This document shows, piece by piece, positions 1 through 18,510 of a stretch of 64,000 bases of DNA (the first letter of the stretch is position 1; every line of letters starts with the position of its first letter). Source of the DNA: Nitrosopumilus sp. (lineage in GTDB: Archaea; Thermoproteota; Nitrososphaeria; Nitrososphaerales; Nitrosopumilaceae); assembly GCA_963667665.2 (NCBI GenBank), contig OY763927.2:896001-960000 (forward strand), in the 5' to 3' direction. The position numbers were made by a program, and so were the translations under genes. Below the pieces are notes generated by a model. That model was not told the origin of the DNA. It saw only the letters and a program-made list of their open reading frames with translations, and did no database searches.

Positions 1-1764
1 GCCGTTGAAGGATGAGGTGCCGTAGAACATGTATCCCGTGTCGTCGACATCGGACAGGTCCGGCGCGTCGGTTGCGCGGTACACCATATTGGTCGCCCCG
101 TCAAACGCCCTGTACATGGTGGTCCATCTCGTGTCGCCCCACTGGTCGATCGACTTGAGCTGGAGGACGTTTGGTTTATCGTCCGAGTCGTATATGAAGA
201 TACTCTTAAGGCCATCATCCAGTACGGTGACGGTGTAGTTTCCGGCGGTGCTGTACGTGTGCGACTGGGAGTCGCTGACATTTGTGCTGTTGGAGCCGTC
301 ACCCCATAGGATGGAGTACATGCCTTTCATGGGGAGGGTTATGCTCTTGTCGGAGTCGGTGGCAGTCCAAGTGGTGATAAACGGCCGGTGCTCCCCCTTG
401 ACGGTGACGATGAGCGTCCGGGTGTGGCCTTCCTCTTCGGCGTTAGGCTCGCCCAGTACGGCAGGAGCAGTTATGTCCAGAGGATACATGCCTACAGGTG
501 GCAGGTTTGTAGAGTTAAGCGAGAGTGTCTTGCCGTCCATGACAAACCTGGTGTCATCTATAGAATATGTGGACACAAGGCCGTCCAGGTAACTGTTCTG
601 CGCCCTGATGGGAAACATCGCGTTGGCAGTCAGGACGGGAGGGTCCTGCACCACGTACCATTCCCCGAGGTTCTGCGAGAACGCGGTGGCGAAATTGAAC
701 ATGTCATCCATGTTGGTCACGCGCGAGACGTTCCAGGAGTTGAGAGGCTGGTTGAAGTCGGTGGCGTCTGCGAACATGCCAGACATGTAGGTGACAGACG
801 AGACATCCCAGTCGTTGAGGGGCTGGTTGAAGGAGGTGGCGACTGCGAACATGTCGTTCATGTTGGTGACAGAGGAGACGTCCCAGGAGTTGAGAGGCTG
901 GTTGAAGACGGAGGCGTAATAGAACATGCCAGACATGTAGGTGACAGACGAGACATCCCAGTCGTTGAGGGGCTGGTTGAAGGAGTTGGCGACTGCGAAC
1001 ATGTCGTTCATGTTGGTGACAGAGGAGACGTCCCAGGAGGAGAGGTTGCCGTTGAAGTCGTAGGCGAAGATGAACATGTCGGACATGTCAGTCACCTTTG
1101 AGACGTCCCAGGAGGAGAGGTCGCCGTTGAAGGAGGAGGCGCTATCGAACATGTTGGACATGTCAGTCACGCCTGAGAGATCGGGCGCATCACCTGCGTT
1201 GTACACCATGTTGGAGGCGCCGCTAAAGGCGTTCTCCATCGAGGCCCATGAGGCGGTACCCCACTGATCCAGTGAGACCAGTTTGGACGCGTCGGCGGCA
1301 TTGTTCAGGTGAAACCATGTCAGGCCGCCGGTTATCTGGACGGTATAGTCGCCGGCAGTATTGTAGGTGTGGTCAACGGGTGTCGAGACGCCGGCGGTGG
1401 TGTTGCCGTCGCCCCAATTAATGGTGATGTCGGTTCCTACTAGCGGGAGGGTTATCGACTCGTCTGCAGAAGTCGTCCTCCACGTGGTCACAAACGCCCC
1501 GGCGGTCAGAGACGTGCTGTCTGGAGTCTGCGCAAACGCGTATCCTGACTGTGACGCAGACAAGTCCGGAATTGACCAAGTGTTACCGGTCAGATGGTAC
1601 GGTGCGGGGTCTGATGCAACTATTTGTCCCGGCTTGACTGTGTGTTGCACCTCTGCGCCACCCCCCACCCCAATCACCATGAGCGATACGGCAAATACGG
1701 CTACCAGCAGGAATATCTTTTCGTGGCGGCACCTGCAGGCTGTGCGGGACGAACCGCTGGACAA
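1..1764 (-). CDS. BspA-like / DUF285 repeat surface protein with PKD-like modules (runs off the left edge)
   Basis: Manual minus-strand translation (absent from the ORF track because there is no stop in the window): TTG start, hydrophobic N-terminus (KIFLLVAVFAVSLMVIGVG), 'AFVTTWRTT..ITLP..INWGDG', 'SIDQWG', and 25-aa repeats of the type 'FNQPLNSWDVSSVTNMNDMF'. Confidence 0.9.
   Translation of the reverse strand, partial: MSSGSSRTACRCRHEKIFLLVAVFAVSLMVIGVGGGAEVQHTVKPGQIVASDPAPYHLTGNTWSIPDLSASQSGYAFAQTPDSTSLTAGAFVTTWRTTSADESITLPLVGTDITINWGDGNTTAGVSTPVDHTYNTAGDYTVQITGGLTWFHLNNAADASKLVSLDQWGTASWASMENAFSGASNMVYNAGDAPDLSGVTDMSNMFDSASSFNGDLSSWDVSKVTDMSDMFIFAYDFNGNLSSWDVSSVTNMNDMFAVANSFNQPLNDWDVSSVTYMSGMFYYASVFNQPLNSWDVSSVTNMNDMFAVATSFNQPLNDWDVSSVTYMSGMFADATDFNQPLNSWNVSRVTNMDDMFNFATAFSQNLGEWYVVQDPPVLTANAMFPIRAQNSYLDGLVSTYSIDDTRFVMDGKTLSLNSTNLPPVGMYPLDITAPAVLGEPNAEEEGHTRTLIVTVKGEHRPFITTWTATDSDKSITLPMKGMYSILWGDGSNSTNVSDSQSHTYSTAGNYTVTVLDDGLKSIFIYDSDDKPNVLQLKSIDQWGDTRWTTMYRAFDGATNMVYRATDAPDLSDVDDTGYMFYGTSSFNG
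772..1039. repeat. Near-identical 150-bp-period tandem duplication inside the DUF285 gene
   Basis: gaacatgccagacatgtaggtgacagacgagacatcccag... begins at both 772 and 922. Confidence 0.9.
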
Positions 1765-1848
1765 ATATCGAAAAGGGGCACTAAAATTGTAATTAAAGGT
1801 CACTGTCCTTATTTATACCATTAAGTATTTATATTTGCCTTTATAGTT

Positions 1849-1990
1849 CTGTTGTACGGAAATTAGTTCTGTCCAAGTTTAATCGTACCATAAAGGATTA
1901 TTTTACACTGTACTAGTCATCTATTGTACAGAAATTAGTTCTGTCCAAGTTTAAGCGCACCATAAATGATCGTTTACACTGTACCGATCA
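1849..1990. repeat. Two imperfect ~72-bp tandem repeats upstream of the DUF285 gene
   Basis: ct(g/a)ttgtac(g/a)gaaattagttctgtccaagtttaa..accataaa..tttacactgtac at 1849-1920 and 1921-1990. Confidence 0.9.
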
Positions 1991-2418
1991 GGCCGCATGA
2001 TGCAAATCTGGAAATATTTGGCAGTTCTTTTAAAATATGCAGCATCAGATGTCAAATAAAAAGTGTCAGGAATCTGCCAAAAAATCACAGTGAACGGACC
2101 CAAACACCGCCTAGATGACAGGATTTGCACAGATCTTGGATGGTTTGCAGGTTTTGTGTGGATGTGGCAAAGGCAGAAATGGGAGTGGCATCAAATGGCT
2201 GGCAGACTGCTTCGGGCAAAGAGCATACACGTGGAACCTGAAAATGCTGCACAATCAGGTCAAACCCCGTCCGGCCCACTACAATAAGGAAGCTTTTATA
2301 GAATTTTTTTTATGTGTGTCACAACATGCAGGTTGGACGCTGAACGGAATTCCATATTCAGGTATGCGTGAAAATGAGCTAGTTCTTTGCTGCAGGTTAT
2401 TCCCGGCCCTTTATTGCC

Positions 2419-2826
2419 ATGGCAGTATTAGATTATGACTCATGTTACAAAATACTGCGTCCTGTGGAACAGGCAGATTTCAACGCACCTCCCAAAATCG
2501 TTCATATATTGAAGATGATCCCGTCTGACGGGCGCGTGGCATTTGAACATTTTAAGGATACCGGCAAACATACTGCCATCAGGGAGTCAAACATGCATGT
2601 TCCAACGGAATACTCAAAAGAATATCACCGTACGAGTGCGTATTGAGGCTTGGTTCAGTTAAATTCTGGCGCACACGGCTCAGCGAGTCCGGCCACAAGA
2701 ACTACGCGTCAGAACCTGGCACCGGGCAAGCATGTTTGAGATGCCTATCCAGGTTCGACGAGTGGCTGCCCGGTAGCTCATTCCATACTATTCGGATTAA
2801 AGATCCGGACAAAATCACTTTCGCCG
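2419..2826 (+). pseudogene. Frameshifted N-terminal fragment of a tyrosine integrase related to 24727-26412
   Basis: LGSVKFWRTRLSESGHKNYASEPGTGQACLRCLSRFDEWL aligns by eye with LKSIQYWQSQLRGNRQKNAKTAEDSTKKAYLRQLWNFNKWL of the intact integrase; truncated at the duplicated segment. Confidence 0.6.
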
Positions 2827-3697
2827 TTTTCAATTGAGTGTTCAATTAGGTGGATGGGTGTTAAGTAGGGTGATAAATGATTATGGGAGTGGTTCGTGTC
2901 CTCTTTTGTATCCTGAGAATTTTCTATATTCGTAATCAGTTAAAGGAGTTTGACATCCACATTTACAAAATGTTTTCATGTTTTCAATTTACACTGCACA
3001 TACAAAAAGATTAGGAATTCATCTTTAGCCAGCAACTGTCTTTTCCATTTGACAACCATGCAAATTTATGAAGTTTCAAAATATCATTAATCTCCCTCCA
3101 GATGTGTTTATCAATCCAATCCTTGGGAGTTATTTTGATAGAGTCACCCTTATTAACTATTGATACTTTTTTGATTCTCTTTCCAAGATTGTTTACAAAA
3201 TTTGGTTTGCTTCCAGCTTGTTTTATCAAATCTAGATATTTGTCATCACCAAGATTCAAGTTAATGTTTGCAGCTTGTGCAGGAGTCTTACCATTTAGCC
3301 CTTGATGTGGTTTTACAAAGTTATGGTTAATTTTCAACAATTCTGAAAATGTTTGTGCTGATTCATCATTTCCCAATCCACGTCTAGCTTTGAGTTTTTC
3401 TCTTATCTCATTATGGTATCTCTCAATAGGCCTATTCACAAAGCCATCTTTGAGTGATTTTGTTTTGATATGTGCAGTTTTATTTTCAAACTCTTTTCTA
3501 ATTGCTTCTTGGTAAGAGTTGAGACAATCAGTTAATACATAATTTGGATTCTGTGATACTATCTTTTTGCCACTTGTGATAATCTTTCTTGCATCTGAAA
3601 TTTTCCTTTTCTGTTGATTTGGGATATTTTTTTTGACAAAACTTGAAGACAGAGTCAAATCTAACATTATTTCTGAAATTAGAATCACTACATTTTA
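2827..3697. repeat. 871-bp direct repeat, copy 1 (copy 2 at 9485-10355)
   Basis: Constant offset of 6658 bp; only about 3 substitutions seen (near 3329-3352). Confidence 0.95.
3011..3688 (-). pseudogene. IS6-family-like DDE transposase, C-terminal part (N-terminus missing)
   Basis: Motifs 'VLTDCLNSY', 'NRPIERYHNEIREK..RRGL', 'HNFVKPHQGLNGKTPAQAA'; first catalytic Asp region absent. Confidence 0.8.
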
Positions 3698-3750
3698 GGT
3701 TCTGTAACGTTACCGGTTGGATCTTCTTCGTGTAACACATCGGTTGGTTT
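3698..3750 (+). mobile_element. ~50-bp mobile-element end or recombination site, copy 1
   Basis: ggttctgtaacgttaccggttggatcttcttcgtgtaacacatcggttggtttt; nearly identical at 15308 and inverted at 24581-24629. Confidence 0.8.
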
Positions 3751-3821
3751 TAGTGTAAAATCCCTGGAATATTTTGAGAAACATATTGACACCTTAACAA
3801 ATCCATATTTTTTCAACCATT

Positions 3822-4175
3822 TTACTTACGTGTCCTACGCCTAGAAGCCCCAAATGAGCCAGGTCCAAATCCTAGAAATTCATTAATCTTTCCACCCAAA
3901 GTCTTTGGTTCAAATTTCTTTTTGTAATAATTTCCACTTGAAGTACTCTTATCCAAATTACAATCAATACATGCTGGAACTAGATTCCGAAGGTAATTTG
4001 ATCCTCCTTTTGCACGAGCTTTGCTGTGATCTATATGCCATGCTCCACGATTTCCATATTTACCACGATTTCCATATTTACCATAATTGACAAATGCTAA
4101 TTGTTTTTCACAATAATAACAATGCCTATTATTTTTATCATAGACATAATTGACTTCTTCATCAGTAAACGTCAT
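3822..4175 (-). CDS. HNH endonuclease (zinc-binding, McrA-like)
   Basis: CYYC...HIDH...GGSN...NLVPACIDCNLDK; contains an 18-bp in-frame tandem duplication (GKYGNR x2). Confidence 0.9.
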   Translation of the reverse strand: MTFTDEEVNYVYDKNNRHCYYCEKQLAFVNYGKYGNRGKYGNRGAWHIDHSKARAKGGSNYLRNLVPACIDCNLDKSTSSGNYYKKKFEPKTLGGKINEFLGFGPGSFGASRRRTRK

Positions 4176-4191
4176 AATTTATCAACTATAT

Positions 4192-4551
4192 TCAGTATGG
4201 AAAAGTTATTGTGATTTCTTTTCCTTCTGGTGTGACTTCATTACATTCAGGAGTATATTTCTTGTAAAGAGTATGTTCTATGTTTTTTTGATCTTCTTCA
4301 TTATTTACATAGCAATATCTAAAATACAATGCTTTGTCTCCTACTCTGCTTTTAATACATTTGTTCTCTTCATCATTTGATAGATGTTTTAATAATCTAG
4401 TTTCCAAATATTTTGTTCTACCAACATACACTGGTCTGTATCCGCCTTTTTTGAGACCCACACTGATCAGATAGTTTCCACCTATATCGTTAACAACTTT
4501 TTTGACAGTTTCTTCATAATAATCAAAAAGGCCATGCCACTCTAATTCCAT
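4192..4551 (-). CDS. GIY-YIG nuclease
   Basis: GNY..VYVGRT..LETRLLKH..E(HTL)..PECN pattern. Confidence 0.8.
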   Translation of the reverse strand: MELEWHGLFDYYEETVKKVVNDIGGNYLISVGLKKGGYRPVYVGRTKYLETRLLKHLSNDEENKCIKSRVGDKALYFRYCYVNNEEDQKNIEHTLYKKYTPECNEVTPEGKEITITFPY

Positions 4552-4561
4552 ATCATCACCA

Positions 4562-4828
4562 TCAACATTTCCCCTGCAAACGCTTCCGTTTGTAGATTAC
4601 ATCAGCTACTACTCTTCCATATGATCTTGCTTTTGGTTTTACTGTTACTGTTTTCCCCTGAATTTGCCTTGCTAGTTTTTGCTTCGCAGACAAATATCCT
4701 GGTTGTCCTTTTTCAGGACAGTTCAAACCAGTTACGCGAACATATTGAGAGTTATTTACTTTATTTCGTATCTTGAAAGTATCACCATCAATTACTTTCT
4801 GAACTTTTCTACGGTAAACCTTTTTCAT
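4562..4828 (-). CDS. Minimal thermonuclease (SNase/OB-fold) family protein
   Basis: KVIDGDTF, VRVTGLNCPE, YGRVVADV motifs. Confidence 0.85.
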   Translation of the reverse strand: MKKVYRRKVQKVIDGDTFKIRNKVNNSQYVRVTGLNCPEKGQPGYLSAKQKLARQIQGKTVTVKPKARSYGRVVADVIYKRKRLQGKC

Positions 4829-4908
4829 TTTTTTCTCCCATATATCATTGGAGTTTCATCAGGTCCATCATCAAATTCTCTGATTATTCGTGGGTACATT
4901 TTATTCAT
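4825..4908 (-). CDS. Putative 27-aa first ORF of the nuclease operon (MNKMYPRIIREFDDGPDETPMIYGRKK)
   Basis: ATG about 30 bp downstream of an AT-rich TATA-like box; its TGA overlaps the SNase ATG (ATGA coupling). Confidence 0.5.
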   Translation of the reverse strand: MNKMYPRIIREFDDGPDETPMIYGRKK

Positions 4909-4947
4909 ATCATGCCTAGAACTTTACAATAATAATATATGATCAAG

Positions 4948-4972
4948 ATAGTCTTAATAATACTTAGACTAT
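4948..4972. promoter_or_regulatory. Palindromic operator ATAGTCT-N11-AGACTAT
   Basis: Dyad ends just before the ATG (4974) of the CARF-like regulator, in the divergent intergenic region. Confidence 0.65.
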
Positions 4973-4973
4973 A

Positions 4974-5708
4974 ATGACTAAACTGACAAGACTGCGTATA
5001 CACGTATGTCCAATAGGATATGAGATAGACCGAATTGTTGAATCTGCAAAAAAATTACAAGCTGATCGTGTATGGCTAATCATAGAACAGAATCCTTCAA
5101 AAGAAACAGCTTCTAAATTCATTAAGCAGGTAAGATCCCTTCTGAAAAAGAATGAAATCGATGTAAAACTAAAAGGCGTATCACGTGATGATCTTTTTGA
5201 CAATCTAAAAGGAATAAAAGAAATTTTCGAAGAAGAAAAAGGAAATGAACTTTATGTCAATGTTTCAGCTGGCTCAAAAATTCAAGCAATTGCAGGGATG
5301 ATGGCATGTATGATGTTTAAAGAGTATGAATCTATTCCATATTATGTTAATCCAAAAAAATATGAAAAGCCTTCGACATCACCACAATCATCAGGTGTAA
5401 AAGATATTGTTCCTCTTCCAGATTATACAATACAAAAACCCAACGCCGAATTAGTACAAACTCTCAAAATAATTAAAAATAATAATGAAAAATTAAATAA
5501 AAAGTCTTTAGGAAAAATTGCAATTCGTGAGGGATTAATAGATTCGAAAAATGATAAAGTAACTCAAAGTGATTATGCAAAACTAGACCATCACATTATC
5601 AAGCCGTTAGAAGAAATATGGAAATATATCACTGTAAAAAGAATTGGAACTAATCATTGGATTGAATTGACAGATGCAGGAAAAGATGCATGTAAATTTT
5701 TAATCTGA
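4974..5708 (+). CDS. CARF-like + winged-HTH regulator (DUF6293/HFX_2341-like)
   Basis: 'IHVCPIGYEIDRIV', 'ADRVWLI', 'YVNVSAGSKIQAIAGMMA'; C-terminal wHTH 'IIKPLEE..YITVKRIG..IELTDAGK'. Confidence 0.8.
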   Translation: MTKLTRLRIHVCPIGYEIDRIVESAKKLQADRVWLIIEQNPSKETASKFIKQVRSLLKKNEIDVKLKGVSRDDLFDNLKGIKEIFEEEKGNELYVNVSAGSKIQAIAGMMACMMFKEYESIPYYVNPKKYEKPSTSPQSSGVKDIVPLPDYTIQKPNAELVQTLKIIKNNNEKLNKKSLGKIAIREGLIDSKNDKVTQSDYAKLDHHIIKPLEEIWKYITVKRIGTNHWIELTDAGKDACKFLI

Positions 5709-6003
5709 TATATGTATATGGTAATTATTCATAAACACCACACAATTTTAACACGAGTATACATATTTTTACAATATATTTTTTGAGCAATTCCTGTTTT
5801 TAGTAACTTAAATTTGAATCTTGATTGATTTGTATTTTTGATAACATAATACCCTTCATTTTTCTAATCTCAAATCATAATAACTATCATTATATCAAAA
5901 ATTCGTCGTAGTGGAATCACTAATGAATTTGATGATACAGATGTGTCTGGAGATGAAATTGTCAAAAAATTAGATGATGCTTTGGAGGATTACAGGTGAA
6001 ATT

Positions 6004-6201
6004 GTGACAAAACAACACATCAAAGTCATCGTAGAAAACAACTCCTACATTGTTAATGTGACTGAATCTTCAGAAAGTGGATTTGTTGGAAACTGTATAG
6101 AATTACCCGCAGCAATAAGCCAAGGAGAATCAATTTCAGAACTAGAGAAAAATATCAAAGAGGCAATAATGCTAGTTTTACAAGAACATATGGACAAATG
6201 A
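6004..6201 (+). CDS. HicB-family antitoxin (no HicA partner evident)
   Basis: 'GFVGNCIELPAAISQGESISELEKNIKEAI' matches the HicB pattern. Confidence 0.75.
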   Translation: MTKQHIKVIVENNSYIVNVTESSESGFVGNCIELPAAISQGESISELEKNIKEAIMLVLQEHMDK

Positions 6202-6517
6202 TTCACAATCCCTAAATCATTCTGCTGTAAACTAGCAACATGTCACGTCGTTAATGACAAAAACAAGAATTCATGGAGCCAGAGTACCAAGAAACGCAAG
6301 GGTCAAACGACCTGTAAGCTGTGGTTTTGTGAAAAGAAAAAAGAGAGGTTACCAACATGTGATGACTCTTATCCAAAATACCAAAAAGCAAGGTGTCAAC
6401 AGATGCAAAATCTGCAAACATCATTTTCTTTCTTACTTGAAAACAGTTACAAATTTGATTAAAATACAAAATCACTGTTTTTACACAATCTTAATCTCTC
6501 AGTCTATCTCTTAGCCA

Positions 6518-7225
6518 TTGTTGCCAAATCTTTTTGTAGACATTGAAACTGCACCTCAATTCACCAAAGAAGAATACTTTAAAACAAAAGAGGCAATTGA
6601 TTCAGGAATATTACACAAGAATTCTGAGAACAAGGATTTGTTTTGGAGATTTGAGCGAGGGGGCCTTACACCATTTAATGGCAAAACTATCCTCATTACA
6701 TACAAAATCAACAATGGCCATGTCTTTCGACTCAAAGAATGGGAACTAGGAGAAAAAGAACTATTGCAAAAATTCTACAACGTTGTAGTTGATTTGCAGC
6801 GAGGAACAAGTGATGATAGACTAAAAATAATTGGTCACAACATCCTTCGATTTGACTTGTTTTTTCTGTATGGTAGAATGATTCATCACAATATTGAGGA
6901 TGAAAAATGGCTTCATCAATGGCTCATTAACAAACCTGAAGTAATTGATTTTCTTCAAATACATCTACCATTAAATAATTTCAAAACTAAAGGTCTCAAG
7001 CATGATGTTTTGGCATATGCGTATGATTTTCCTGTAAAATCAACTCTTGGTTCTGGTGAAATCCCACATTATTTTCAAGAGGATTATGATAAAATAATAG
7101 AATATTCTGAGCGTGAATTCATTTATCCAGAATTGTATGAGAAAATCATTACTAATGGAATGATTACATCAGAGATGTTACAAAAATCAATTAAACATTA
7201 TGATAATTTACAAAATGAAAATTAA
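6518..7225 (+). CDS. DEDD / RNase H-like 3'-5' exonuclease (PolB-exo/DnaQ-like)
   Basis: ExoI 'FVDIETAP', ExoII 'IIGHNILRFDLFFL'. Confidence 0.75.
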   Translation: MLPNLFVDIETAPQFTKEEYFKTKEAIDSGILHKNSENKDLFWRFERGGLTPFNGKTILITYKINNGHVFRLKEWELGEKELLQKFYNVVVDLQRGTSDDRLKIIGHNILRFDLFFLYGRMIHHNIEDEKWLHQWLINKPEVIDFLQIHLPLNNFKTKGLKHDVLAYAYDFPVKSTLGSGEIPHYFQEDYDKIIEYSEREFIYPELYEKIITNGMITSEMLQKSIKHYDNLQNEN

Positions 7226-7372: not shown

Positions 7373-7740
7373 TTAACAAGAATCTAAACTCATATCTCCA
7401 TTCTCATCAGTATTTACAGGTATTCGAATTTCCTTTCCAAAAAAATCCGTTATTGAATACTGTTTTGGAGTCACCATTCTAGCTGCACTTTGAATCAATG
7501 TCTTCCACTTGTCTTCTCCAAGAATGTTAATTCCTGCAATTTCAGCAGGAGTTTTACCTCCTAAACTGGTATGTGGCCTGAAATAGTTGTGATATAATTG
7601 ATATCCTGAAATCACGACTGAATCCTTCTTTTTTACGCCTCGTGTTGTCTTTTCTTTGTCTCGAAATTCACCGTTTAATCTCTCCATCATGTTGTTGTTG
7701 TGGTTTCCATCCATTCTAATGGTGTTAATGTGAATCGGAA
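7373..7740 (-). pseudogene. IS6-like DDE transposase C-terminal remnant (different lineage from 3011-3688)
   Basis: 'NNNMMERLNGEFRDKEKTTRGVKK..YHNYFRPHTSLGGKTPAEIAGI'. Confidence 0.8.
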
Positions 7741-7742
7741 TA

Positions 7743-8021
7743 TCATTTCCTTTTCCACGCATCAAATTCGATAATTTTCAGATTCTTGTCATTAGTTTTT
7801 TCCAAGTCCTTTTTTACTTTTTTGATTAATGTTGTTTTACCAGATCCCCATTCTCCATGAATTCCTATTGTAAAAGGAGGTTGTAATTTTTTATCAGTGA
7901 GAATGTTGGCAATTTGCTGAGAATACTTGACAAAATTAAATTGTAAATTCTCAATTTCAGGTTCATCTGTGATTAGTTTAAGTTTCTCAAGAATCTGTTG
8001 TTTATGATCACTTTCTGACAT
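7743..8021 (-). pseudogene. Truncated KAP-family P-loop NTPase
   Basis: 'PFTIGIHGEWGSGKTT..IIEFDAWK' followed by an abrupt stop at the transposase remnant. Confidence 0.8.
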
Positions 8022-8101: not shown

Positions 8102-9377
8102 GGTTCTGTAAAGTTGGTGGTTTACGATTGACTTTAACTAACCTGTCAAAGATCGCCTCATTCACCGTCACGCCTAAAAGTAGGACATTTGAGGAACTGA
8201 TCAGAAATGTACAAACAAGGATTTGCATTAATAGGAACGGCTGCATTTCTGCACATTATTACACAAATATTTCAATTTATTCAAGACCAAACTCTCGACA
8301 TTTTTCGAAATGAGTCCCACGTATTTAGCATCATTATTCCAATTATTATTGGAATAATAGGTATAGTGTTGATTTTCAAAGATAAATTTGGGTGGTTCAA
8401 AAATAAAGATAATAGAAAACAATATGATGCAAAAAAACTCAATGAGACTGTTTTCAGAAAATTAATGCGAGTAGAATGTATAGAAGATGAATTTTTCTTT
8501 ATAGAAAAATTTGGGTTTTGTATACCTACAAATAAAATGGCATTTACAAACAAAAGCGAATCTGATTATTTATTTTGGGCTGTAGGAAGTAGAGATGCCA
8601 GATACATTCACAAAGAATTTGACATTATTGAGAGAATTATCCCAAATTTAGAAACAGGAGAACAATATTTGAAGATAGAATATTATGAAATTTATAAACA
8701 ATGGATTCAAATTAAAAAAGATTTGGAAGAATTAAATCTAAAAAGAAAATCTTTCTTTAATTCAATATCCAAACAAATTGGTAAGAAATTAAAAAAACAT
8801 TTCAACTGTGAATCTAAATTACTTTTACATCCATTTGGAGATGAATGTGTATTTTTTGAAGAAAATACAGAAAAGATTTTGCCGTATCAATTCAATACAC
8901 ATTATCTTGAATTAGATAATCCTTGTGAAAATCAATACTATGTAACATATAGGAGAAATAGGATTCTGGGCAGTAATAAAAACACAGCAGATTTGGATGT
9001 AGTTAAAGATGTATTCACTACTATTACAAATGATAGAAGAATAATAGACAAAAAAATTAACTTTGATATGGATAAAATAAACTTAAACAAAAGAATCTCA
9101 GATTTTTGTGATCAATTGGAACATAAGGTTGTACATGATATTGACGCTCAAATTACTTCCTAAGATATTCACTCATAATAACACGAATAGTCTCAGATAC
9201 AGTCCAACAATTCTTCATTACATTCTTTTTCTAATGTTTTTACCATATCAACAGAGGAAAGAAACAAAACTGTACTCGAGGAAGTAGACCATTCCAAGTT
9301 CAAATCTGTTGAGATTTGCACAAAAATCAACCGAAATGAGACAAGGAGAAGATATCAACCGAGCATGTTACAGAACC
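8102..9377. mobile_element. Putative non-autonomous element with short inverted ends GGTTCTGTAA, carrying one passenger gene
   Basis: ggttctgtaa at 8102 and ttacagaacc ending at 9377; same terminal word as at 3698 and 15308; no target-site duplication seen. Confidence 0.5.
8207..9163 (+). CDS. Hypothetical protein with two N-terminal transmembrane segments
   Basis: 318-aa ORF; hydrophobic stretches near residues 5-24 and 40-56. Confidence 0.7.
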   Translation: MYKQGFALIGTAAFLHIITQIFQFIQDQTLDIFRNESHVFSIIIPIIIGIIGIVLIFKDKFGWFKNKDNRKQYDAKKLNETVFRKLMRVECIEDEFFFIEKFGFCIPTNKMAFTNKSESDYLFWAVGSRDARYIHKEFDIIERIIPNLETGEQYLKIEYYEIYKQWIQIKKDLEELNLKRKSFFNSISKQIGKKLKKHFNCESKLLLHPFGDECVFFEENTEKILPYQFNTHYLELDNPCENQYYVTYRRNRILGSNKNTADLDVVKDVFTTITNDRRIIDKKINFDMDKINLNKRISDFCDQLEHKVVHDIDAQITS

Positions 9378-9484: not shown

Positions 9485-10355
9485 TTTTCAATTGAGTGTT
9501 CAATTAGGTGGATGGGTGTTAAGTAGGGTGATAAATGATTATGGGAGTGGTTCGTGTCCTCTTTTGTATCCTGAGAATTTTCTATATTCGTAATCAGTTA
9601 AAGGAGTTTGACATCCACATTTACAAAATGTTTTCATGTTTTCAATTTACACTGCACATACAAAAAGATTAGGAATTCATCTTTAGCCAGCAACTGTCTT
9701 TTCCATTTGACAACCATGCAAATTTATGAAGTTTCAAAATATCATTAATCTCCCTCCAGATGTGTTTATCAATCCAATCCTTGGGAGTTATTTTGATAGA
9801 GTCACCCTTATTAACTATTGATACTTTTTTGATTCTCTTTCCAAGATTGTTTACAAAATTTGGTTTGCTTCCAGCTTGTTTTATCAAATCTAGATATTTG
9901 TCATCACCAAGATTCAAGTTAATGTTTGCAGCTTGTGCAGGAGTCTTACCATTTAGCCCTTGATGTGGTTTTACAAAGTTATGGTTGATTTTCAACAACT
10001 CTGAAAATGTCTGTGCTGATTCATCATTTCCCAATCCACGTCTAGCTTTGAGTTTTTCTCTTATCTCATTATGGTATCTCTCAATAGGCCTATTCACAAA
10101 GCCATCTTTGAGTGATTTTGTTTTGATATGTGCAGTTTTATTTTCAAACTCTTTTCTAATTGCTTCTTGGTAAGAGTTGAGACAATCAGTTAATACATAA
10201 TTTGGATTCTGTGATACTATCTTTTTGCCACTTGTGATAATCTTTCTTGCATCTGAAATTTTCCTTTTCTGTTGATTTGGGATATTTTTTTTGACAAAAC
10301 TTGAAGACAGAGTCAAATCTAACATTATTTCTGAAATTAGAATCACTACATTTTA
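9485..10355. repeat. 871-bp direct repeat, copy 2
   Basis: Matches 2827-3697. Confidence 0.95.
9669..10346 (-). pseudogene. IS6-like transposase C-terminal part (duplicate)
   Basis: Translation identical to 3011-3688. Confidence 0.8.
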
Positions 10356-11368: not shown

Positions 11369-11711
11369 AACACATAGATTCTGAAAAATAAAGACCGAAG
11401 GTCAAAGCGTAGCGAGGTTTGAGCGAAGCGAAAACCGAGCGGAGCCTTAGAAAATAATTAATCATTCTTCAAACATAGTATTCTTCACCAATACCAATAA
11501 TCAGTATTCTTCACTAGTATTCTGAGTCATCATTCCATCTAGTCAATTCTAGAATTTTTATTTTTACTGTATATTTTGTTACCCTTTTTACTGAGGCCTT
11601 TTCTTTTTTTTCTTTTTTTGTTCGCCGATTCGCTGTTAGGGTATATTGCGAATAAAGTGTTTTCGTGCCTAGATTGAAATTATTCGCCAAAAGTTAGTTT
11701 TAGGAGTAAAT

Positions 11712-11765
11712 TGGGATCAATGGGATCAATGGGATCAATGGGATCAATGGGATCAATGGGATCAT
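11712..11765 (+). repeat. Six tandem 9-bp repeats TGGGATCAA (iteron-like; last copy TGGGATCAT)
   Basis: Read directly. Confidence 0.95.
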
Positions 11766-11802
11766 TTTGTGTCTGTTAAATAGAAAATGACAATCTAAAA
11801 TT

Positions 11803-12044: not shown

Positions 12045-15000
12045 CTAAACAACAAATATCTTAACTCCTATTTTTTCTTCTTCTGTAAGTGATTCATAAA
12101 CGTCTTGGATTTTTGGACTAATTGACCATACATGACACTCTTTGAATCCTAACTGTTTCCATTTTACCATATTTAGTTTGACATGACTTTTATGAGAATC
12201 GGACTCTGCGTTTGACTCTATTTCAACAGATATTGGAATTTCTTTTTCATAATCATAAGCTACAAAATCTGTTCGTAATTTGCCTTTCTTTACTTTTTGT
12301 GTAGCTACTGTGACAAAGTTTCCTTTTGAAACATAATGATCTGTTACCTTTTGAACCATCATTGGAATGTCTTTGGCACTTCCTACAGTCTCAGAAGAAT
12401 AATCAAATAATTGAGATTTTGTCTTATCTGTCAATGAATATACTCCCTTATGGCCTTCAGTTTTAGAAAGCATTTTTTTGTTTACCATGTTCTGCAGAAT
12501 GTCCTTAGACATGGTATCTCGATGAATTGTACCGCCTTTGAAGCTATCAACAATCTTTTGAAGTCCAAGTGGTGAATCTTTGAGAATACAACAAACCAAC
12601 CATTCATCTTCTGTTGGAGGCTCAAATGAGATATTCTTGAGCCATACATTGCTTTGAGAGGAATATTGCTTCATCAAAGAGTCGCCAACTACACCATGAC
12701 CGTATTTCTCCTTTTGAGATTCTATGAATTCATCTAGGAATTCCTTTGGCTGAGTATCTTTTTTAGGAAAAACTGGCCAAAACTGGATAGGTATTGGTTG
12801 GGTTTCCCCTGGAGCTGCAATTAATCTTACAGTCCAGGGATAGTATTCTTGTGTAGCTAGCTGCGATTCAATCTCTTTGGTATATGTTGGATCCCAAATT
12901 TGGCCAAATCTTTTACCATCTCTGCCAGAAACCTTTCCTACAAATTGAGTTCCTACATTTCCTGTAATAATTTCAAACAATTTATCATTAAGCTGAGTCG
13001 ATGTTTGATGTGCCAGTAACAATGATAGTTTGTATGATCTAGCTTGTGTCAACATTGATTCTATTATTGGCAGATTTGCAATATCTTGAAATTCATCTAA
13101 TGCCAAAACAACCTGTGTTCTGTCTTCTTCAATTTTGATTCTATCTGCTCTTTCTTGTATTACAAACCACAGCTTGATCACCAATGTTTGTTTAGCTAAA
13201 GTTATGATATGCTGAGGAATGTTTAGTGGTGATAATCTAATTATTGTGACATGTCCTGGTGAAATCAATTCATCAAAATTAATGGTTGATTCTCTGACAC
13301 AGAAAAGATGTCTCAGAATTGGGTCTGTTGCAAATTTCTCAACTCTATTCAATACTGGCTCATAAGCTTCTTTGGACATTCCTGCAATGGATTCAACTGC
13401 TTGTTGTAAAACAGCATCAGGCTTTCCTAATTCCTTGAACATTTTTGATAACATTTCTGTTCCATCTTCCTGGATAGAGATTATAATCTCATACAAATCA
13501 AGAAATGTTGGTTTGTCATTATTCAGATATAGATATTGTAGTAGTGTGTCTAGAATTCTTTTTAGTCTGACAAAAGAATCAGAGCCATTATACCAATATT
13601 CTATCATTGTCATAATATAACCAACATATTGTGAAACTACAGCTTCTCTGTTTTCTGGAAGATATGATGGAAGCTCCAAAATATTCATAGAGAATTTTGT
13701 TTGGATTGGATCCAAAAAGTGAACATTACCTTTTGCTAATGTTTCATTTTCGCATTGTCTTAGAAAATCATATGAATCAGATCCCTTTGGGTCAATTAGG
13801 ATGAAGGCATTTGGGAAATTTCCAGAAATATTTGAGAGCTCCAAATGTTTTGCAATTGCTCTGATTAGAGTGGTTTTTCCTGATTTGGTACCACCAACTG
13901 CATACATGTGAGTTGGAATATCCTCAGTGGATAGAACTATGCTCTTAGTTTCTGCTGAATGAATGAAATTACCATAGAAATTAGGTTCATCATAATTTAA
14001 CGTGGAATTTCTTGAATAATATCCAAGACAATAACCAATTTTGTTCATCTGTTGTTGTGGCATTGATTGTTTTCGGGTGATGGTTAGATGCTTTGTGGTG
14101 CTGTTAGGTAAATGAATGAACAATCCCAATTCACTTGGAATTAATAACAAAAATGGTGGCGATTTTCTTGTCTTATATTTTCCACTCCAAGATTTTGAAC
14201 AATAATCATTTACTATTTTTGGGAATTGATGTATAGGATCAGGAAGTAGTCTGTCTGGAAATATGTCTATCTTTTGTTTTTTTGTTTTCTCTGAATTTAT
14301 CTTGATGTATTGTGGATTTTTTTCTGAATAAAAATTATCATATTTGTAGATATTTTTGGTAACATGCTCAAAATTTGAGCGGATATTTTCAACTGGTAAG
14401 GATTCTATTTCTGAGAAATCTAAATCCAAATCAACATTTGATTCTACCAATCCTCTAACAGACAACAACACATGTGAGTCCTGAGTCTTCATAGTGCTGT
14501 GTTTTTCTAATACTTTGAAATTTGTTGCAAAGTCGTGAAACTTTTCTGGATGTTCTCGTCCTTCAGTTTTACTTGTGAATAGCATATCTGATGTACTGTA
14601 ATAGTCATTAGCTGTTACTGTCTTGTAATGGTTTTTGATATTAGTTGAATGAGATTGTAGTTCTTTCACAAAAGAATGGTTTTTGAATACTAGCTGAATC
14701 CATGCGTATTTTGAAAGCTGGATGGTATTTGCAATTTGTGTGATTAACAGATGTGCTTTTGCCTGATCAAAGACTGTTGTATAATGACCGTGCTTGTATC
14801 CTACATCAAATATTTGGTAATCCTTGTTTTTATCAAACCAGTCAGGAACCAAATAATCAATATCTTCAAAATCAATATTTTGATACATGTTGTAAAATGA
14901 CTGTTTTAGCTTGTCAAGATCGTGGGTTGATGCCACCAAAACTATGTGAAGTTGTTGTTTTTCTGAATCCCACCATAACTCCATTGAGCGAATTCCTGCA

Positions 15001-15161
15001 GAAATTATTCCCCCTACGTTGTTTATTGCGTTTTTTACGTCCATAGTTGTTGGAATTGAAATAAAACACGCCTTGAGTTCAGTATTTGTTCCTACAAATC
15101 TTTCTGTTTGGTCTAATAATCCTGGAATATTTTTAGAGTTTGAAAGCTTCCAATTAGCCAT
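12045..15161 (-). CDS. HerA/FtsK-superfamily (VirD4/TraD-like) ATPase with putative C-terminal wHTH and PD-(D/E)xK-like domains
   Basis: Walker A GGTKSGKT, 'LIDPKG', Walker B LALDEFQ, 'ARSYKLSLLLAHQ'; C-terminal 'RTDFVAYD..ISVEIE'. Confidence 0.8.
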   Translation of the reverse strand: MANWKLSNSKNIPGLLDQTERFVGTNTELKACFISIPTTMDVKNAINNVGGIISAGIRSMELWWDSEKQQLHIVLVASTHDLDKLKQSFYNMYQNIDFEDIDYLVPDWFDKNKDYQIFDVGYKHGHYTTVFDQAKAHLLITQIANTIQLSKYAWIQLVFKNHSFVKELQSHSTNIKNHYKTVTANDYYSTSDMLFTSKTEGREHPEKFHDFATNFKVLEKHSTMKTQDSHVLLSVRGLVESNVDLDLDFSEIESLPVENIRSNFEHVTKNIYKYDNFYSEKNPQYIKINSEKTKKQKIDIFPDRLLPDPIHQFPKIVNDYCSKSWSGKYKTRKSPPFLLLIPSELGLFIHLPNSTTKHLTITRKQSMPQQQMNKIGYCLGYYSRNSTLNYDEPNFYGNFIHSAETKSIVLSTEDIPTHMYAVGGTKSGKTTLIRAIAKHLELSNISGNFPNAFILIDPKGSDSYDFLRQCENETLAKGNVHFLDPIQTKFSMNILELPSYLPENREAVVSQYVGYIMTMIEYWYNGSDSFVRLKRILDTLLQYLYLNNDKPTFLDLYEIIISIQEDGTEMLSKMFKELGKPDAVLQQAVESIAGMSKEAYEPVLNRVEKFATDPILRHLFCVRESTINFDELISPGHVTIIRLSPLNIPQHIITLAKQTLVIKLWFVIQERADRIKIEEDRTQVVLALDEFQDIANLPIIESMLTQARSYKLSLLLAHQTSTQLNDKLFEIITGNVGTQFVGKVSGRDGKRFGQIWDPTYTKEIESQLATQEYYPWTVRLIAAPGETQPIPIQFWPVFPKKDTQPKEFLDEFIESQKEKYGHGVVGDSLMKQYSSQSNVWLKNISFEPPTEDEWLVCCILKDSPLGLQKIVDSFKGGTIHRDTMSKDILQNMVNKKMLSKTEGHKGVYSLTDKTKSQLFDYSSETVGSAKDIPMMVQKVTDHYVSKGNFVTVATQKVKKGKLRTDFVAYDYEKEIPISVEIESNAESDSHKSHVKLNMVKWKQLGFKECHVWSISPKIQDVYESLTEEEKIGVKIFVV

Positions 15162-15307: not shown

Positions 15308-15361
15308 GGTTCTGTAACATCACCGGTTGGATCTTCTTCGTGTAACACATCGGTTGGTTTT
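15308..15361 (+). mobile_element. ~50-bp mobile-element end or recombination site, copy 2 (left end of the 15.3-24.6 kb block)
   Basis: ggttctgtaacatcaccggttggatcttcttcgtgtaacacatcggttggtttt. Confidence 0.8.
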
Positions 15362-15522
15362 TGTGCAAATCTACCAAAGTTTGGTCATTAAATCTCCCAT
15401 CGGGTTTTGTCAGATCAGCAATACTCCCCACTTTTGTTTATAACTCTAATCTTAATTTTCAAAAAATCATAAATTTTTTGTTGACTGTTAATATTATATT
15501 CTATCAAATCGTATAGTATTAC

Positions 15523-18066: not shown

Positions 18067-18102
18067 AAAACACAAAAATAATTATGAATTTAACTAAAAA
18101 TT

Positions 18103-18510
18103 ATGAATTTTAAATCTGAAATTAACCGAGACGAATTAATTCAAAAAGCTAGGGAAGCAAAAGAATTTGCTTATTGTCCTCACTCCGACTTTAAGGTTGG
18201 TGCTGCACTACTCTTAGAAAATGGAAAAATCATACTAGGTTGTAATGTGGAGAATATTTCTTATGGTGCAACAAACTGTGCTGAAAGAACAGCAATCTTC
18301 AAAGCAATATCTAATGGAGAACAATCATTTCAAGCAATAGCTATCTCGTCTTCTAGTTCTCCTGATAAACCAATTTACCCATGCGGAATTTGTAGACAAG
18401 TCATGGCTGAATTTAATCCTGAAATGATTGTCTATGTTGACGGAGATGAAACTTCTTACAAATTATCAGAGTTATTACCAAAATCATTTGACGAAAATCA
18501 AATGAAATAG
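18103..18510 (+). CDS. cdd: Cytidine deaminase (homotetrameric type)
   Basis: AYCPHSDFKVGAAL, GCNVEN, CAERTA, PCGICRQ. Confidence 0.92.
   Translation: MNFKSEINRDELIQKAREAKEFAYCPHSDFKVGAALLLENGKIILGCNVENISYGATNCAERTAIFKAISNGEQSFQAIAISSSSSPDKPIYPCGICRQVMAEFNPEMIVYVDGDETSYKLSELLPKSFDENQMK

Follow-up and report, generated by a model that had tools for sequence, protein, structure and literature searches.

The window, a 64-kb stretch of Nitrosopumilus DNA (64,000 nucleotides), carries between positions 3822 and 5708 a tight minus-strand operon of four cistrons, which encode in order a 27-aa open reading frame (ORF), a mini-SNase, a GIY-YIG protein and an HNH protein. The operon diverges from a gene for a CARF-wHTH regulator. 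The features of the locus are the following.

2827..3697, minus strand: 871-bp repeat with an IS240-type DDE transposase ORF (Pfam DDE_Tnp_IS240, 2.8e-7)
3822..4175, minus strand: minimal HNH endonuclease, 117 aa, last gene of the operon (Pfam HNH)
4047..4082, minus strand: in-frame 18-nt tandem duplication (6 aa) within the HNH gene
4192..4551, minus strand: stand-alone GIY-YIG nuclease domain protein, 119 aa, third cistron (borderline Pfam match plus family profile)
4562..4828, minus strand: mini-SNase, 88 aa, second cistron (sub-threshold Pfam match plus fold)
4825..4908, minus strand: 27-aa leading ORF, first cistron, whose stop overlaps the SNase start (ATGA)
about 4928..4941, no strand: AT-rich TATA-like block seen in the sequence, about 27 nt from the ATG of the small ORF
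4948..4972, no strand: dyad ATAGTCT-N11-AGACTAT, putative operator of the CARF-wHTH regulator, ending 1 nt before the CARF ATG (4974)
4974..5708, plus strand: CARF-wHTH transcription factor, 244 aa, HFX_2341/DUF6293 family (Pfam, PADLOC CARF3)

The preliminary description of this DNA had proposed three small nucleases of unrelated folds (88–119 aa) in a tight operon, led by a coupled 27-aa ORF and divergent from a DUF6293-like CARF-wHTH gene. All of these ORFs are in place, the nuclease folds are supported, and the regulator matches Pfam HFX_2341_N and DUF6293_C as well as PADLOC CARF3. The intercistronic gaps measure 10 nt between the SNase and GIY-YIG genes, where a GGTGAT Shine-Dalgarno-like motif precedes the latter, and 16 nt between the GIY-YIG and HNH genes. 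Two related loci were fetched, and the gene order is kept in one of them. This locus, L001, from a Nitrosopumilus metagenome-assembled genome (MAG), is the sole syntenic relative of the cassette: homology covers exactly window positions 3826–5704, from the HNH stop to the CARF stop, and the block of ∼1.88 kb shows 78.7% nucleotide identity, while outside it the two loci have IS fragments alone in common. The genes follow the same order with the same 10-nt and 16-nt gaps, the GIY-YIG and SNase proteins are 76% and 91% identical, and dS lies between 0.75 and 1.4 across all five ORFs with dN/dS between 0.07 and 0.19 (HNH 0.07, SNase 0.07, CARF-wHTH 0.105, GIY-YIG 0.17 and the 27-aa ORF 0.19, the last from few sites). 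Judging by these alignments, the four genes and the small ORF are one unit that moved as a block, and all five ORFs are under purifying selection. The expected conservation of gene order held for the whole block in L001 and failed in the second locus, L002, where a GIY-YIG homologue occurs without SNase, HNH or CARF partners.

Unequal family sizes (9 relatives found for GIY-YIG, 42 for SNase and 33 for HNH) indicate that the three nucleases are not obligate partners. It could be argued from this, from the solitary homologue in L002 and from the abundance of broken genes and IS fragments in the region that three independent small nuclease genes merely share a junkyard island, with a regulator whose sole targets are its own gene or remote ones. 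This is highly improbable, as order, gaps and the start/stop overlap have been kept at dS ∼0.8–1.4, the block has sharp edges, and the sole operator-like site of the window, like that of L001, falls in the divergent spacer. The leading ORF itself follows the same pattern: its L001 counterpart, 28 aa long and 75% identical, carries an in-frame 3-nt indel and keeps the start/stop overlap with the SNase gene. It is probably translated, to judge from this conservation, and its mRNA is probably leaderless or nearly so. RNA structure signal is absent from the ORF (z=-0.02), and neither Rfam nor Pfam gave a match.

The mini-SNase scores 19.3 bits against Pfam SNase, under the cut-off of 21 and over profile positions 2–64 of 107 only, and matches a PHROG endonuclease at 5.7e-11. 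Its AlphaFold2 model (pLDDT 92.7) aligns in Foldseek with Staphylococcus aureus nuclease and the SN domains of SND1 at TM 0.76–0.80; the family profile found none among PDB sequences at E<=0.01. The protein comprises the OB-fold core of staphylococcal nuclease and lacks the helices at the C terminus. A truncated remnant was considered and ruled out, since all 42 of the 42 relatives found are 83–98 aa long. Residues D14, G15, P38 and R72 are invariant in the family and D16, T17, R31 and E39 nearly so. The catalytic set of the fold is presumably Asp21, Arg35, Asp40, Glu43 and Arg87; the position that we take to match the calcium-binding Asp40 is Asn in most family members, a substitution that could lower activity. 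SNase-like nucleases of ∼120 aa from Staphylococcus phages are 33–38% identical to the mini-SNase over ∼80 residues and are ∼30 aa longer.

The GIY-YIG protein scores 21.9 bits with Pfam, just under the cut-off of 22.6, and its family profile matches the N-terminal GIY-YIG domain of UvrC (1ycz) in the PDB at E=1.3e-4. Only nine relatives, of 118–125 aa, were found in a set of 5.8 billion proteins, and Y27, Y42, G44, R52, H56, E92 and N104 are invariant among ten sequences. Membership of the superfamily, for which we assume GIY and YIG motifs with a conserved Arg, Glu and Asn to be diagnostic, is indicated by the invariant Y27, Y42-x-G44, R52, E92 and N104 together with the UvrC-domain match. 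The HNH protein passes the Pfam HNH cut-off (30.7 bits against 21.4) and matches a PHROG HNH endonuclease at 4.6e-18. It has two CxxC pairs and the catalytic His, and its C-terminal tail, basic and rich in Gly, is conserved; the closest 22 of its 33 relatives are 109–118 aa and the others 76–121 aa. Across 28 aligned sequences C19, C22, H50, N64, C69, C72, N73 and K76 are invariant, so that the catalytic His, conserved Asn residues and Cys4 zinc site (C19/C22/C69/C72) of the beta-beta-alpha-metal fold are all found. The 18-nt duplication is missing in the other 27 aligned sequences.

In all three alignments the conserved columns coincide with what we take to be the catalytic positions of each fold. 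These residues and the dN/dS values of 0.07–0.19 argue that the nucleases are not inactive remnants, a concern attached to the preliminary description; they look intact and are predicted to be active. Viruses often carry small HNH and GIY-YIG genes. Among 50,697 phage records the GIY-YIG protein had no match, and the cassette DNA had none in phage and plasmid records. Translations read by eye begin with no long hydrophobic stretch suggestive of export in any of the three nucleases.

The regulator satisfies both domains of its family with ample scores, HFX_2341_N at 1.3e-34 (119.6 bits against a gathering score of 30) and DUF6293_C at 5.2e-20 (72.2 bits against 27), and further matches Csa3_N at 6.8e-8, CARF_Card1 at 2.3e-7 and the stand-alone PADLOC model CARF3--CARF at 9.9e-70. 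The NCBIfam Csa3 model scores 33.9 bits, under its cut-off of 60.2. The signature of CARF domains, which we take to be [DN]x[ST]xxx[RK] after the fourth strand, occurs as N-V-S-A-G-S-K at residues 96–102 and aligns with N-I-T-G-G-T-K of Card1; the family profile matches the CARF domains of Card1 and Can2 with the NVS(A/T)GSK motif aligned, and across 50 members N96 is invariant and G100 nearly invariant. The retention of this motif and its alignment to the Card1 ligand site argue that the CARF domain has a ligand. For the wHTH part the family profile matches the wHTH protein AF_1382, and model residues 158–243 fold as helices and a beta hairpin. On these profiles and this model the regulator is a Csa3-like CARF-wHTH protein. 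Its family has 581 cluster representatives at E<=1e-3 and is named by a single paper in the literature searched.

The AlphaFold2 model of the regulator (pLDDT 95.4) finds Sis0811, Sso1393, Csm6 and Csa3 as its best Foldseek matches; these best matches bind cyclic oligoadenylates, and the likeness to cA4 binders is one of fold and motif. As Sis0811 and Sso1393 are themselves CARF-wHTH ring nucleases, the protein might be chiefly a ring nuclease that degrades cyclic oligoadenylates rather than a switch for the nuclease genes, giving the element a signal-quenching or anti-defence function. The likelihood of this seems to us slight in the extreme: TM scores to the two enzymes are just 0.48–0.56, and the loop after the first strand, in our reading, runs P-I-G-Y-E, without a Ser at the place of Sis0811 S12. 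A wHTH domain and a conserved operator beside its own gene argue instead for DNA binding, and HFX_2341, a member of the same family, is reported to alter transcription (PMC11434293).

Between the divergent genes the TATA-like block at 4928–4941 may serve both promoters. A 19-nt block around it is 17/19 identical in L001, and the 18 nt between this block and the small ORF are poorly kept. The preliminary description had also pointed to a dyad between the TATA-like box and the CARF ATG. It is present, downstream of the AT-rich block on the CARF-gene side, with arms that persist in L001, but it carries no significance by itself: shuffling the 65-nt spacer 2000 times gave an equal or better dyad in 366 cases, and 2000 shuffles of the 145-nt spacer did so in 598, so that alone it is within chance. 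In L001 a dyad occupies the same place, with 13 of 14 arm positions and 5 of the 11 spacer positions identical. The full dyad is unique in the window at up to 2 mismatches, and the looser ATAGT-N11-17-ACTAT occurs once in the 64-kb window and once in the 16 kb of L001, each time in the divergent spacer.

A search by tblastn matched annotated DUF6293 family proteins on 30 haloarchaeal plasmids (identity 26–36%). Upstream of 15 haloarchaeal DUF6293 genes the core ATAGT/ACTAT motif is perfect in 3 and within one mismatch in 8; none of 1000 shuffled sets reached either count (means of 0.07 and 1.34), and in low-G+C control windows the figures are 1/352 and 14/352, although the test is partly post hoc because the 5-nt core was picked after three of the 15 loci had been viewed. 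Conservation in L001 and upstream of haloarchaeal genes makes the dyad credible as an operator; it behaves like a conserved one, and we infer that the regulator binds it.

The setting of the cassette is, by its gene content, a defence and mobile-element island. The 871-bp repeat recurs as a direct copy at 9485–10355 with 99.66% identity over 871 nt, and the two IS240-type copies bracket the cassette together with ∼3.8 kb of further cargo. No terminal inverted repeats are found at the ends of the repeat. In L001, too, IS fragments abut the cassette. The first ∼26 kb of the window hold an integrase, a TraG/HerA-like ATPase, a dGTPase-like HD protein, a DarG-like macro domain, type I specificity and HSDR_N domains and a broken KAP NTPase. 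The region as a whole is rich in broken genes and IS fragments. A second, distant gene of the CARF3 class (23449–24348) is divergent from an operon that ends in a Cas4-like nuclease. L002 offers another kind of neighbourhood, with its GIY-YIG homologue 280 nt downstream of a gene for a Cap15 cyclic-nucleotide receptor (E=3.1e-31), where the contig ends.

Independence from CRISPR and the lack of a named system, both suggested beforehand, agree with the searches. Neither Pfam nor PADLOC detects a cas operon in the 64-kb window, the single such match being a lone Cas4-like nuclease ∼14 kb off, and the window contains no CRISPR-like repeat array. Models of PADLOC-DB v2 return no named anti-phage system, and for the nucleases they give weak hits of a generic kind (HNH to PDC-M01B or PtuB at E>=1.8e-4, SNase at 3.8e-3, GIY-YIG at 0.011). 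No nucleotide cyclase, Cas10 or CD-NTase appeared among the ORFs scanned with Pfam, namely those beside the cassette as far as 9163 and, past position 9000, every ORF of 90 aa or longer save six.

The explanation that we prefer, held tentatively and with somewhat less than even confidence, is that the regulator acts through the operator both to repress its own gene and to gate the nuclease operon, and that the whole is a cassette for defence or conflict, lodged in an integrated island full of IS elements. A self-contained unit of 1.9 kb would move among Nitrosopumilus genomes within IS-rich variable regions. Its dimeric CARF-wHTH protein would bind the ATAGT-N15-ACTAT operator, which covers the point where transcription of the regulator gene is predicted to begin and lies immediately upstream of the AT-rich TATA block, and in the resting state would repress its own gene and hold the four-cistron operon low. 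A nucleotide-type ligand in the CARF domain would then alter DNA binding, so that the three minimal nucleases are made together. As these have no targeting domains, they would degrade DNA non-specifically, with the result that invading DNA is cleared, the infection aborts or rival mobile elements are kept out.

It is unlikely, in our estimation, that the nucleases are instead toxic cargo under a plain local repressor that answers to no infection signal, in the manner of a controller protein in restriction-modification, the unit serving the mobile element through rival exclusion or addiction and the CARF domain being structural or metabolite-sensing. The position between two IS240-type copies, the IS fragments that abut the cassette in L001, its movement as a block, the lack of a signal generator among the scanned window ORFs and the frequent occurrence of haloarchaeal homologues on plasmids and beside integrases would all fit such an arrangement. 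It accords less well with the maintenance of the CARF motif, with N96 invariant and G100 nearly so in 50 members and aligned to the Card1 ligand site, and loss of the cassette would remove nucleases and repressor together, which is a poor design for addiction.

Housekeeping turnover of nucleic acids, in which the operon supplies DNases that salvage nucleotides or phosphate or take part in repair and is switched on by a nucleotide-pool signal that the CARF domain reads, appears quite improbable. SNase-type enzymes are classic bulk nucleases and the nearest solved relative of the GIY-YIG protein is the UvrC repair domain, both of which speak for it. So does the regulation attributed to HFX_2341, which mainly affects transport and metabolism genes (PMC11434293). 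Against it stand the patchy distribution, the mobile, IS-flanked location and the different context in each of the three loci (window, L001 and L002), the defence-type or mobile nature of the neighbouring genes, the mere nine relatives of the GIY-YIG protein in 5.8 billion and the lack of a long hydrophobic start, by eye, in any of the nucleases.

The switchable cassette that we favour may be set beside several known systems. HFX_2341 of Haloferax mediterranei, the one studied member of the regulator's family, shares with it the HFX_2341_N and DUF6293_C domains and a location unlinked to CRISPR; it is described as a chromosomal, vertically inherited, global repressor acting mostly on transport and metabolism genes with modest effects only on cas genes, whereas the cassette regulator is mobile and has its sole operator-like site within 64 kb in its own spacer (PMC11434293). 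That pattern of targets implies that the family is not dedicated to defence (PMC11434293). Csa3a and Csa3b, encoded beside type I-A CRISPR-Cas in Sulfolobales, likewise combine an N-terminal CARF domain with a C-terminal wHTH and have a palindrome just upstream of the BRE/TATA of divergent or adjacent targets (PMC8699464). Csa3a binds cA4, and its binding to the palindrome in vitro is described as non-specific and cA4-independent, so that even in the model system operators of this type are not proven switches (PMC8699464). Unlike these proteins, the cassette has neither cas operon nor CRISPR array in the window, its operator differs in sequence and spacing, and its predicted targets are three nucleases rather than adaptation or interference genes.

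BrxR and CapW are WYL-domain repressors, ligand-sensing regulators of defence islands. The concept of such regulators in defence islands was put forward by Makarova et al. 2014 (PMC4012209). The cassette regulator resembles the BrxR/CapW type in its fusion of sensor and wHTH, in its divergence from variable defence cargo and in a predicted de-repression on an infection cue, and differs in sensing through CARF rather than WYL. Card1/Can2, Can1, NucC and Cap4 are cyclic-nucleotide-activated nuclease effectors in which sensor and nuclease form one protein or complex and respond allosterically within minutes. They share with the proposed cassette the coupling of a CARF-type sensor to DNA degradation; in the cassette, the sensor has a gene of its own, apart from those of the nucleases, and transcription would link the two. 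To our knowledge, CARF sensors have been studied almost only as effector-fused parts of type III CRISPR-Cas. The cassette, read from its sequence, resembles an unnamed switchable defence module, and if this is true a CARF sensor would be wired to effectors by transcription, outside CRISPR, with three unrelated minimal nucleases as the output. Few cells in the ocean are as abundant as ammonia-oxidising archaea, and we know of little work on their resistance to viruses.

The haloarchaeal relatives widen the comparison. On plasmids of these organisms DUF6293 regulators are usually divergent from variable cargo: a divergent neighbour is present in 13 of the 15 loci, and an integrase adjoins the DUF6293 gene in three. 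Domain-checked E2/E1(/JAB) operons form the cargo in four loci, a Mre11-like phosphoesterase with an AAA ATPase in one, and an AAA ATPase, a hypothetical protein, a nucleotide pyrophosphohydrolase and a DUF2075 protein in another. The shared operator motif and this divergent cargo suggest that pairing of regulator and cargo is a general rule in this family, which has no fewer than 581 cluster representatives. In its broadest form, which we regard as doubtful, the HFX_2341/DUF6293 proteins would be pan-archaeal ligand-gated local switches that use an ATAGT-N13-15-ACTAT grammar from Nitrosopumilus to haloarchaea and control interchangeable conflict cargo (the nuclease trio, E1/E2/JAB ubiquitin-like operons or Mre11/SbcC-like pairs), the Nitrosopumilus cassette being a CARF pathway independent of CRISPR. 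A nucleotide second messenger from another part of the cell, produced for instance by a CBASS-type cyclase, would then induce transcription of the nuclease trio, which would destroy either the invader's DNA or that of the infected cell. At 88–119 aa the three proteins are also attractive as minimal nuclease scaffolds for biochemistry, and clusters of small stand-alone proteins of the same nuclease kinds are widespread.

The cassette comprises a nuclease operon and a divergent regulator gene, and its reading frames and layout are exactly as the preliminary description had given them:

4825–4908, minus strand, 27-aa ORF
4562–4828, minus strand, SNase-like gene (88 aa)
4192–4551, minus strand, GIY-YIG gene (119 aa)
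3822–4175, minus strand, HNH gene (117 aa)
4974–5708, plus strand, CARF-wHTH regulator gene (244 aa)

The stop codon of the 27-aa ORF overlaps the SNase start in the sequence ATGA, and the later genes of the operon are separated by gaps of 10 nt and 16 nt, the shorter of which holds GGTGAT, presumably a Shine-Dalgarno-like sequence. Scanning genomes with the GIY-YIG alignment gave two loci. Of the relatives fetched, the one closest to the cassette resides in the chromosome of a Nitrosopumilus MAG (locus L001), where the regulator, a 28-aa ORF and the SNase, GIY-YIG and HNH genes are arranged in the same order as in the window, with identical intercistronic gaps. By blastn the homology between window and L001 is restricted to 3826–5704, from the HNH stop to the regulator stop; the flanks are unrelated except for IS fragments, and transposase fragments directly adjoin the L001 cassette. 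A conserved and mobile cassette that links three nucleases to a regulator does exist.

The second locus, L002, comes from another thaumarchaeal MAG, as a contig of 5 kb; its GIY-YIG gene, 60% identical, is accompanied by none of the SNase, HNH and regulator genes. The expectation that the gene order is conserved elsewhere thus holds in the close relative L001 but not in L002, where the GIY-YIG gene occurs alone (one of two loci). At positions 1–1174 of L002 the GIY-YIG homologue is preceded at a distance of 280 nt by a Cap15-type gene, which encodes TM helices and a cyclic-dinucleotide receptor domain (E = 3.1e-31) and within which the contig ends.

Among the three nucleases, HNH exceeds its Pfam cut-off, and GIY-YIG and SNase fall slightly under theirs. 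A profile built from the GIY-YIG protein and nine relatives matches the N-terminal GIY-YIG domain of UvrC in the PDB (E = 1.3e-4), and the YIG, Arg, Glu and Asn positions of the family align with that domain. The SNase-like protein matches an endonuclease family in PHROGs (5.7e-11), and its AlphaFold model (42 sequences, pLDDT 92.7) displays three strands, one helix and two strands, for which Foldseek retrieves staphylococcal nuclease and the SN domains of SND1 (TM 0.76–0.80 across the whole query). As the mini-SNase family profile gives no match to PDB sequences at E ≤ 0.01, the evidence for the SNase assignment is its fold and motifs.

The relatives of each nuclease are uniform in size: the 42 found for SNase all measure 83–98 aa, the nine for GIY-YIG 118–125 aa, and the closest 22 for HNH 109–118 aa. 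Invariant or nearly invariant positions are D16, R31, E39 and R72 in the SNase alignment, Y27, Y42, G44, R52, E92 and N104 in GIY-YIG, and H50, N64, N73 and four Cys in HNH, all of which we take to be the catalytic columns of the respective families. The SNase column that we equate with Asp40 bears Asn instead of Asp. Relative to L001, dN/dS amounts to 0.07 for HNH, 0.17 for GIY-YIG, 0.07 for SNase, 0.105 for the regulator and, over few sites, 0.19 for the 27-aa ORF, with dS ranging from 0.75 to 1.4 across the cassette ORFs. The preliminary description had considered that the nucleases might be inactive remnants; the uniform sizes, the conserved columns and the low dN/dS (0.07–0.17) argue against this, and on such sequence comparisons the three proteins are judged not to be remnants. 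A truncated or frameshifted SNase, with the 27-aa ORF as its lost N-terminus, was likewise rejected, since all 42 relatives share the same start as well as the short length. The HNH gene of the window contains a private in-frame 18-nt tandem duplication. Small stand-alone clusters of SNase (89–96 aa) and of GIY-YIG (~120 aa) occur widely in the ESM Atlas; each nuclease singly is therefore ordinary and it is the combination that is unusual. In a complex prediction for SNase, GIY-YIG and HNH that took HNH as the partner and had no controls, the score was 0.00 and the mark 0.32, which argues neither for nor against a hetero-complex.

The regulator matches HFX_2341_N (1.3e-34) and DUF6293_C (5.2e-20) in Pfam, Csa3_N and Card1-CARF more weakly, and the stand-alone CARF3 model of PADLOC (9.9e-70); its family numbers 581 representatives at E ≤ 1e-3 (50%-identity clusters). 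In the PDB, its structure model (50 sequences, pLDDT 95.4) is matched best by the CARF-wHTH ring nucleases Sis0811 and Sso1393, followed by Csm6 and Csa3. Searched against the PDB as a single sequence, the regulator retrieves nothing meaningful; the 50-sequence family profile matches the CARF domains of the cA4-sensing Card1 and Can2, in alignments that include the N-V-S-x-G-S-K motif. Within the family N96 is invariant and G100 nearly so. In the one paper of the searched literature that names the family (PMC11434293), the homologue HFX_2341 of Haloferax mediterranei is portrayed as a Csa3a-like global repressor without CRISPR linkage.

A spacer of 65 nt separates the regulator gene from the divergent 27-aa ORF and accommodates the putative operator:

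4948–4972, dyad ATAGTCT-N11-AGACTAT, ending 1 nt before the regulator ATG

Equally good dyads appear in 18–30% of spacer shuffles, so the dyad alone proves nothing. It gains credibility from its conservation in L001, its uniqueness and the enrichment of its core in haloarchaea. In L001 it occupies the same place, with 13 of 14 arm positions and 5 of 11 spacer positions identical; the AT-rich 19-nt block beside it is identical at 17 of 19 positions, and conservation is poor over the 18 nt that follow. No second ATAGT-N11-17-ACTAT site occurs in either the 64-kb window or the 16 kb of L001. For the haloarchaeal comparison, 15 of the 30 plasmid records that carry a DUF6293 homologue were inspected, and the 130 nt around their start codons were searched for ATAGT-N0-20-ACTAT. 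Perfect sites were present in three of the 15 and sites with at most one mismatch in eight, against means of 0.07 and 1.34 in composition-matched shuffles, none of whose 1000 sets reached either count; this test is partly post hoc, the 5-nt core having been chosen after ATAGT arms were seen in three of the 15 loci. Other low-G+C windows of the same loci yielded 1/352 perfect sites and 14/352 with at most one mismatch. The spacers of the haloarchaeal sites are mostly 13–15 nt long. The proposed link between regulator and operator is thereby supported comparatively, at the level of sequence.

The geometry of the spacer suggests how such an operator might act. An AT-rich block at ~4928–4941 is centred ~27 nt from the ATG of the 27-aa ORF, and ~27 nt is the usual distance between an archaeal TATA box and the transcription start. 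Judged from this distance, the operon mRNA would be leaderless or nearly so; read in the opposite direction, the same block would place the start of the regulator transcript inside the dyad. A regulator dimer bound to the dyad would then block the regulator's own promoter and would sit directly upstream of the TATA/BRE of the operon. The Csa3a palindrome lies 12 bp upstream of BRE/TATA according to PMC8699464, in which Csa3a binding in vitro is non-specific and independent of cA4, so that even this model case is unsettled. A structured RNA leader or riboswitch at 4800–4915 was rejected (RNA structure z = −0.02, no Rfam match at E ≤ 1).

Divergent cargo is a frequent companion of this regulator family. 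Of the 15 haloarchaeal loci, 13 have a gene upstream of DUF6293 that is transcribed divergently from it; the exceptions are L013, with no gene listed within 1 kb, which incomplete PLSDB gene tables may explain, and L016, whose upstream gene is on the same strand. The cargo consists of E2/UBC or JAB together with a ThiF-type E1 in four loci (L009, L012, L017 and L019), three of which include a KTSC protein and two of which lie beside integrases; these gene sets look like a regulator-linked ubiquitin-like conflict cassette. The remainder comprise an Mre11-like phosphoesterase with an AAA ATPase (one locus), an AAA ATPase with a hypothetical protein, a nucleotide pyrophosphohydrolase and a DUF2075 protein (one), small wHTH proteins (two), a NEW3-domain protein (one) and operons led by hypothetical proteins (four). 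An integrase adjoins three of the 15 loci. The window itself contains a second arrangement of this kind:

19603–24380, second CARF gene with its divergent operon
23449–24348, very distant CARF3-class gene (PADLOC 4.7e-22)
23415–23449, 35-nt repeat, ending at the ATG of this gene
24345–24379, 35-nt repeat, inverted, at its stop
20397–20435, 35-nt repeat, third copy

The divergent operon encodes a 729-aa HSDR_N and type I specificity protein, a 248-aa protein of no assigned function and a Cas4-like nuclease. The two CARF-type proteins of the window have no detectable likeness by BLASTP (E = 2.4), the 35-nt repeat differs from the ATAGTCT dyad, and no ATAGT-type site occurs upstream of the second gene. 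Judging from the haloarchaeal cargo and this second operon, the pairing of a sensor-regulator with exchangeable cargo appears to be a design that recurs, with the nuclease trio as one cargo.

As the preliminary description anticipated, PADLOC assigned no named system. Neither a cyclase nor Cas10 was present among the window ORFs scanned with Pfam, and no CRISPR-like array was detected in the window. A viral cassette is unsupported: in 50,697 phage records, which include few archaeal viruses, GIY-YIG is unmatched and SNase and HNH have distant matches only. The cassette DNA has no match in phage or plasmid collections; Staphylococcus phages carry distant SNase-like genes of ~120 aa. Literature searches retrieved no description of the gene combination, and a term search of the article text of a thaumarchaeal mobile-element survey (PMC6563490) returned no GIY-YIG, thermonuclease or micrococcal nuclease, and CARF in the reference list only. 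We read the cassette as CARF/Csa3-type regulation of conflict genes that would here be independent of CRISPR and have a nuclease trio as its output. The observations of the preliminary description are confirmed and its regulator–operator link has gained comparative backing; its interpretation as a signal-inducible, CRISPR-independent nuclease cocktail for defence or abortive infection is partly supported, and it is by inference that we ascribe to the cassette a defence function, inducibility and a ligand.

The cassette is surrounded by repeated elements:

2827–3697 and 9485–10355, 871-bp direct repeats, 99.7% identical, with an IS240-type DDE transposase ORF
3698–3759, 15308–15369, 9312–9377 (inverted) and 24581–24629 (inverted), 50–65-nt element, four copies, 82–94% alike

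Between the 871-bp repeats, at whose ends no terminal inverted repeats were found, lie 5.8 kb with the cassette and, besides it, genes for HicB-like and PolB-exonuclease-like proteins, fragments of an IS and of a KAP NTPase, and a 318-aa ORF that belongs to no family. One copy of the short element adjoins the IS repeat and another lies directly beyond the stop of the integrase gene; the element may represent the end of an IS, an att-like site or what is left of sequence coding for a transposase N-terminus. Downstream of the regulator, 5974–7225 encodes a 75-aa protein weakly matching HicB, for which no HicA partner was seen, and a 235-aa protein weakly resembling PolB-type 3'-5' exonucleases (23.1 bits, cut-off 24); both genes are outside the block common to window and L001. 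At 7373–8021, a 92-aa N-terminal fragment of a KAP-family P-loop NTPase, PifA/QatA-like in PADLOC, is truncated by a transposase fragment (7373–7765) and is a broken defence gene.

On a larger scale, the first ~26 kb of the AT-rich window (~31% G+C) resemble an integrated mobile or defence island, beyond which, past 26.4 kb, mostly ordinary core genes follow:

12045–15161, TraG/VirD4-HerA-like ATPase (1038 aa)
24727–26412, tyrosine-integrase-like gene (561-aa protein; weak phage-integrase domain, 26.7 bits against a cut-off of 27.1)
52866–53145, archaeal RNase P RNA

At the right end of the island the integrase-like gene adjoins a prolyl-tRNA synthetase gene; together with the ATPase it suggests an integrated conjugative or cryptic element with its right edge near 26.4 kb. 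The island also contains the Cas4-like nuclease, the HSDR_N and type I specificity protein, IS copies and the broken KAP NTPase. A single run at 16212–18510 encodes a DarG-like macro-domain protein, an HD_assoc_2-bearing HD protein (PADLOC dGTPase, 1.4e-13) and a protein of the cytidine/dCMP deaminase family; together these may be a defence set based on nucleotide depletion. The left end of the window (1–2500) looks foreign to the genome because of its G+C content of 52–56%, against ~31% elsewhere, and its open-ended 601-aa protein, which combines five DUF285 repeats with a PKD domain. An intergenic stretch at 11703–11773 consists of ~7 tandem repeats of the 9-nt unit TGGGATCAA. Farther along, at 38952–39923, an Alba-domain protein carries a long, strongly G/C-skewed repeat extension of 12-nt periodicity, in which 48 overlapping copies were found (42.5% G+C, GC skew 0.41).
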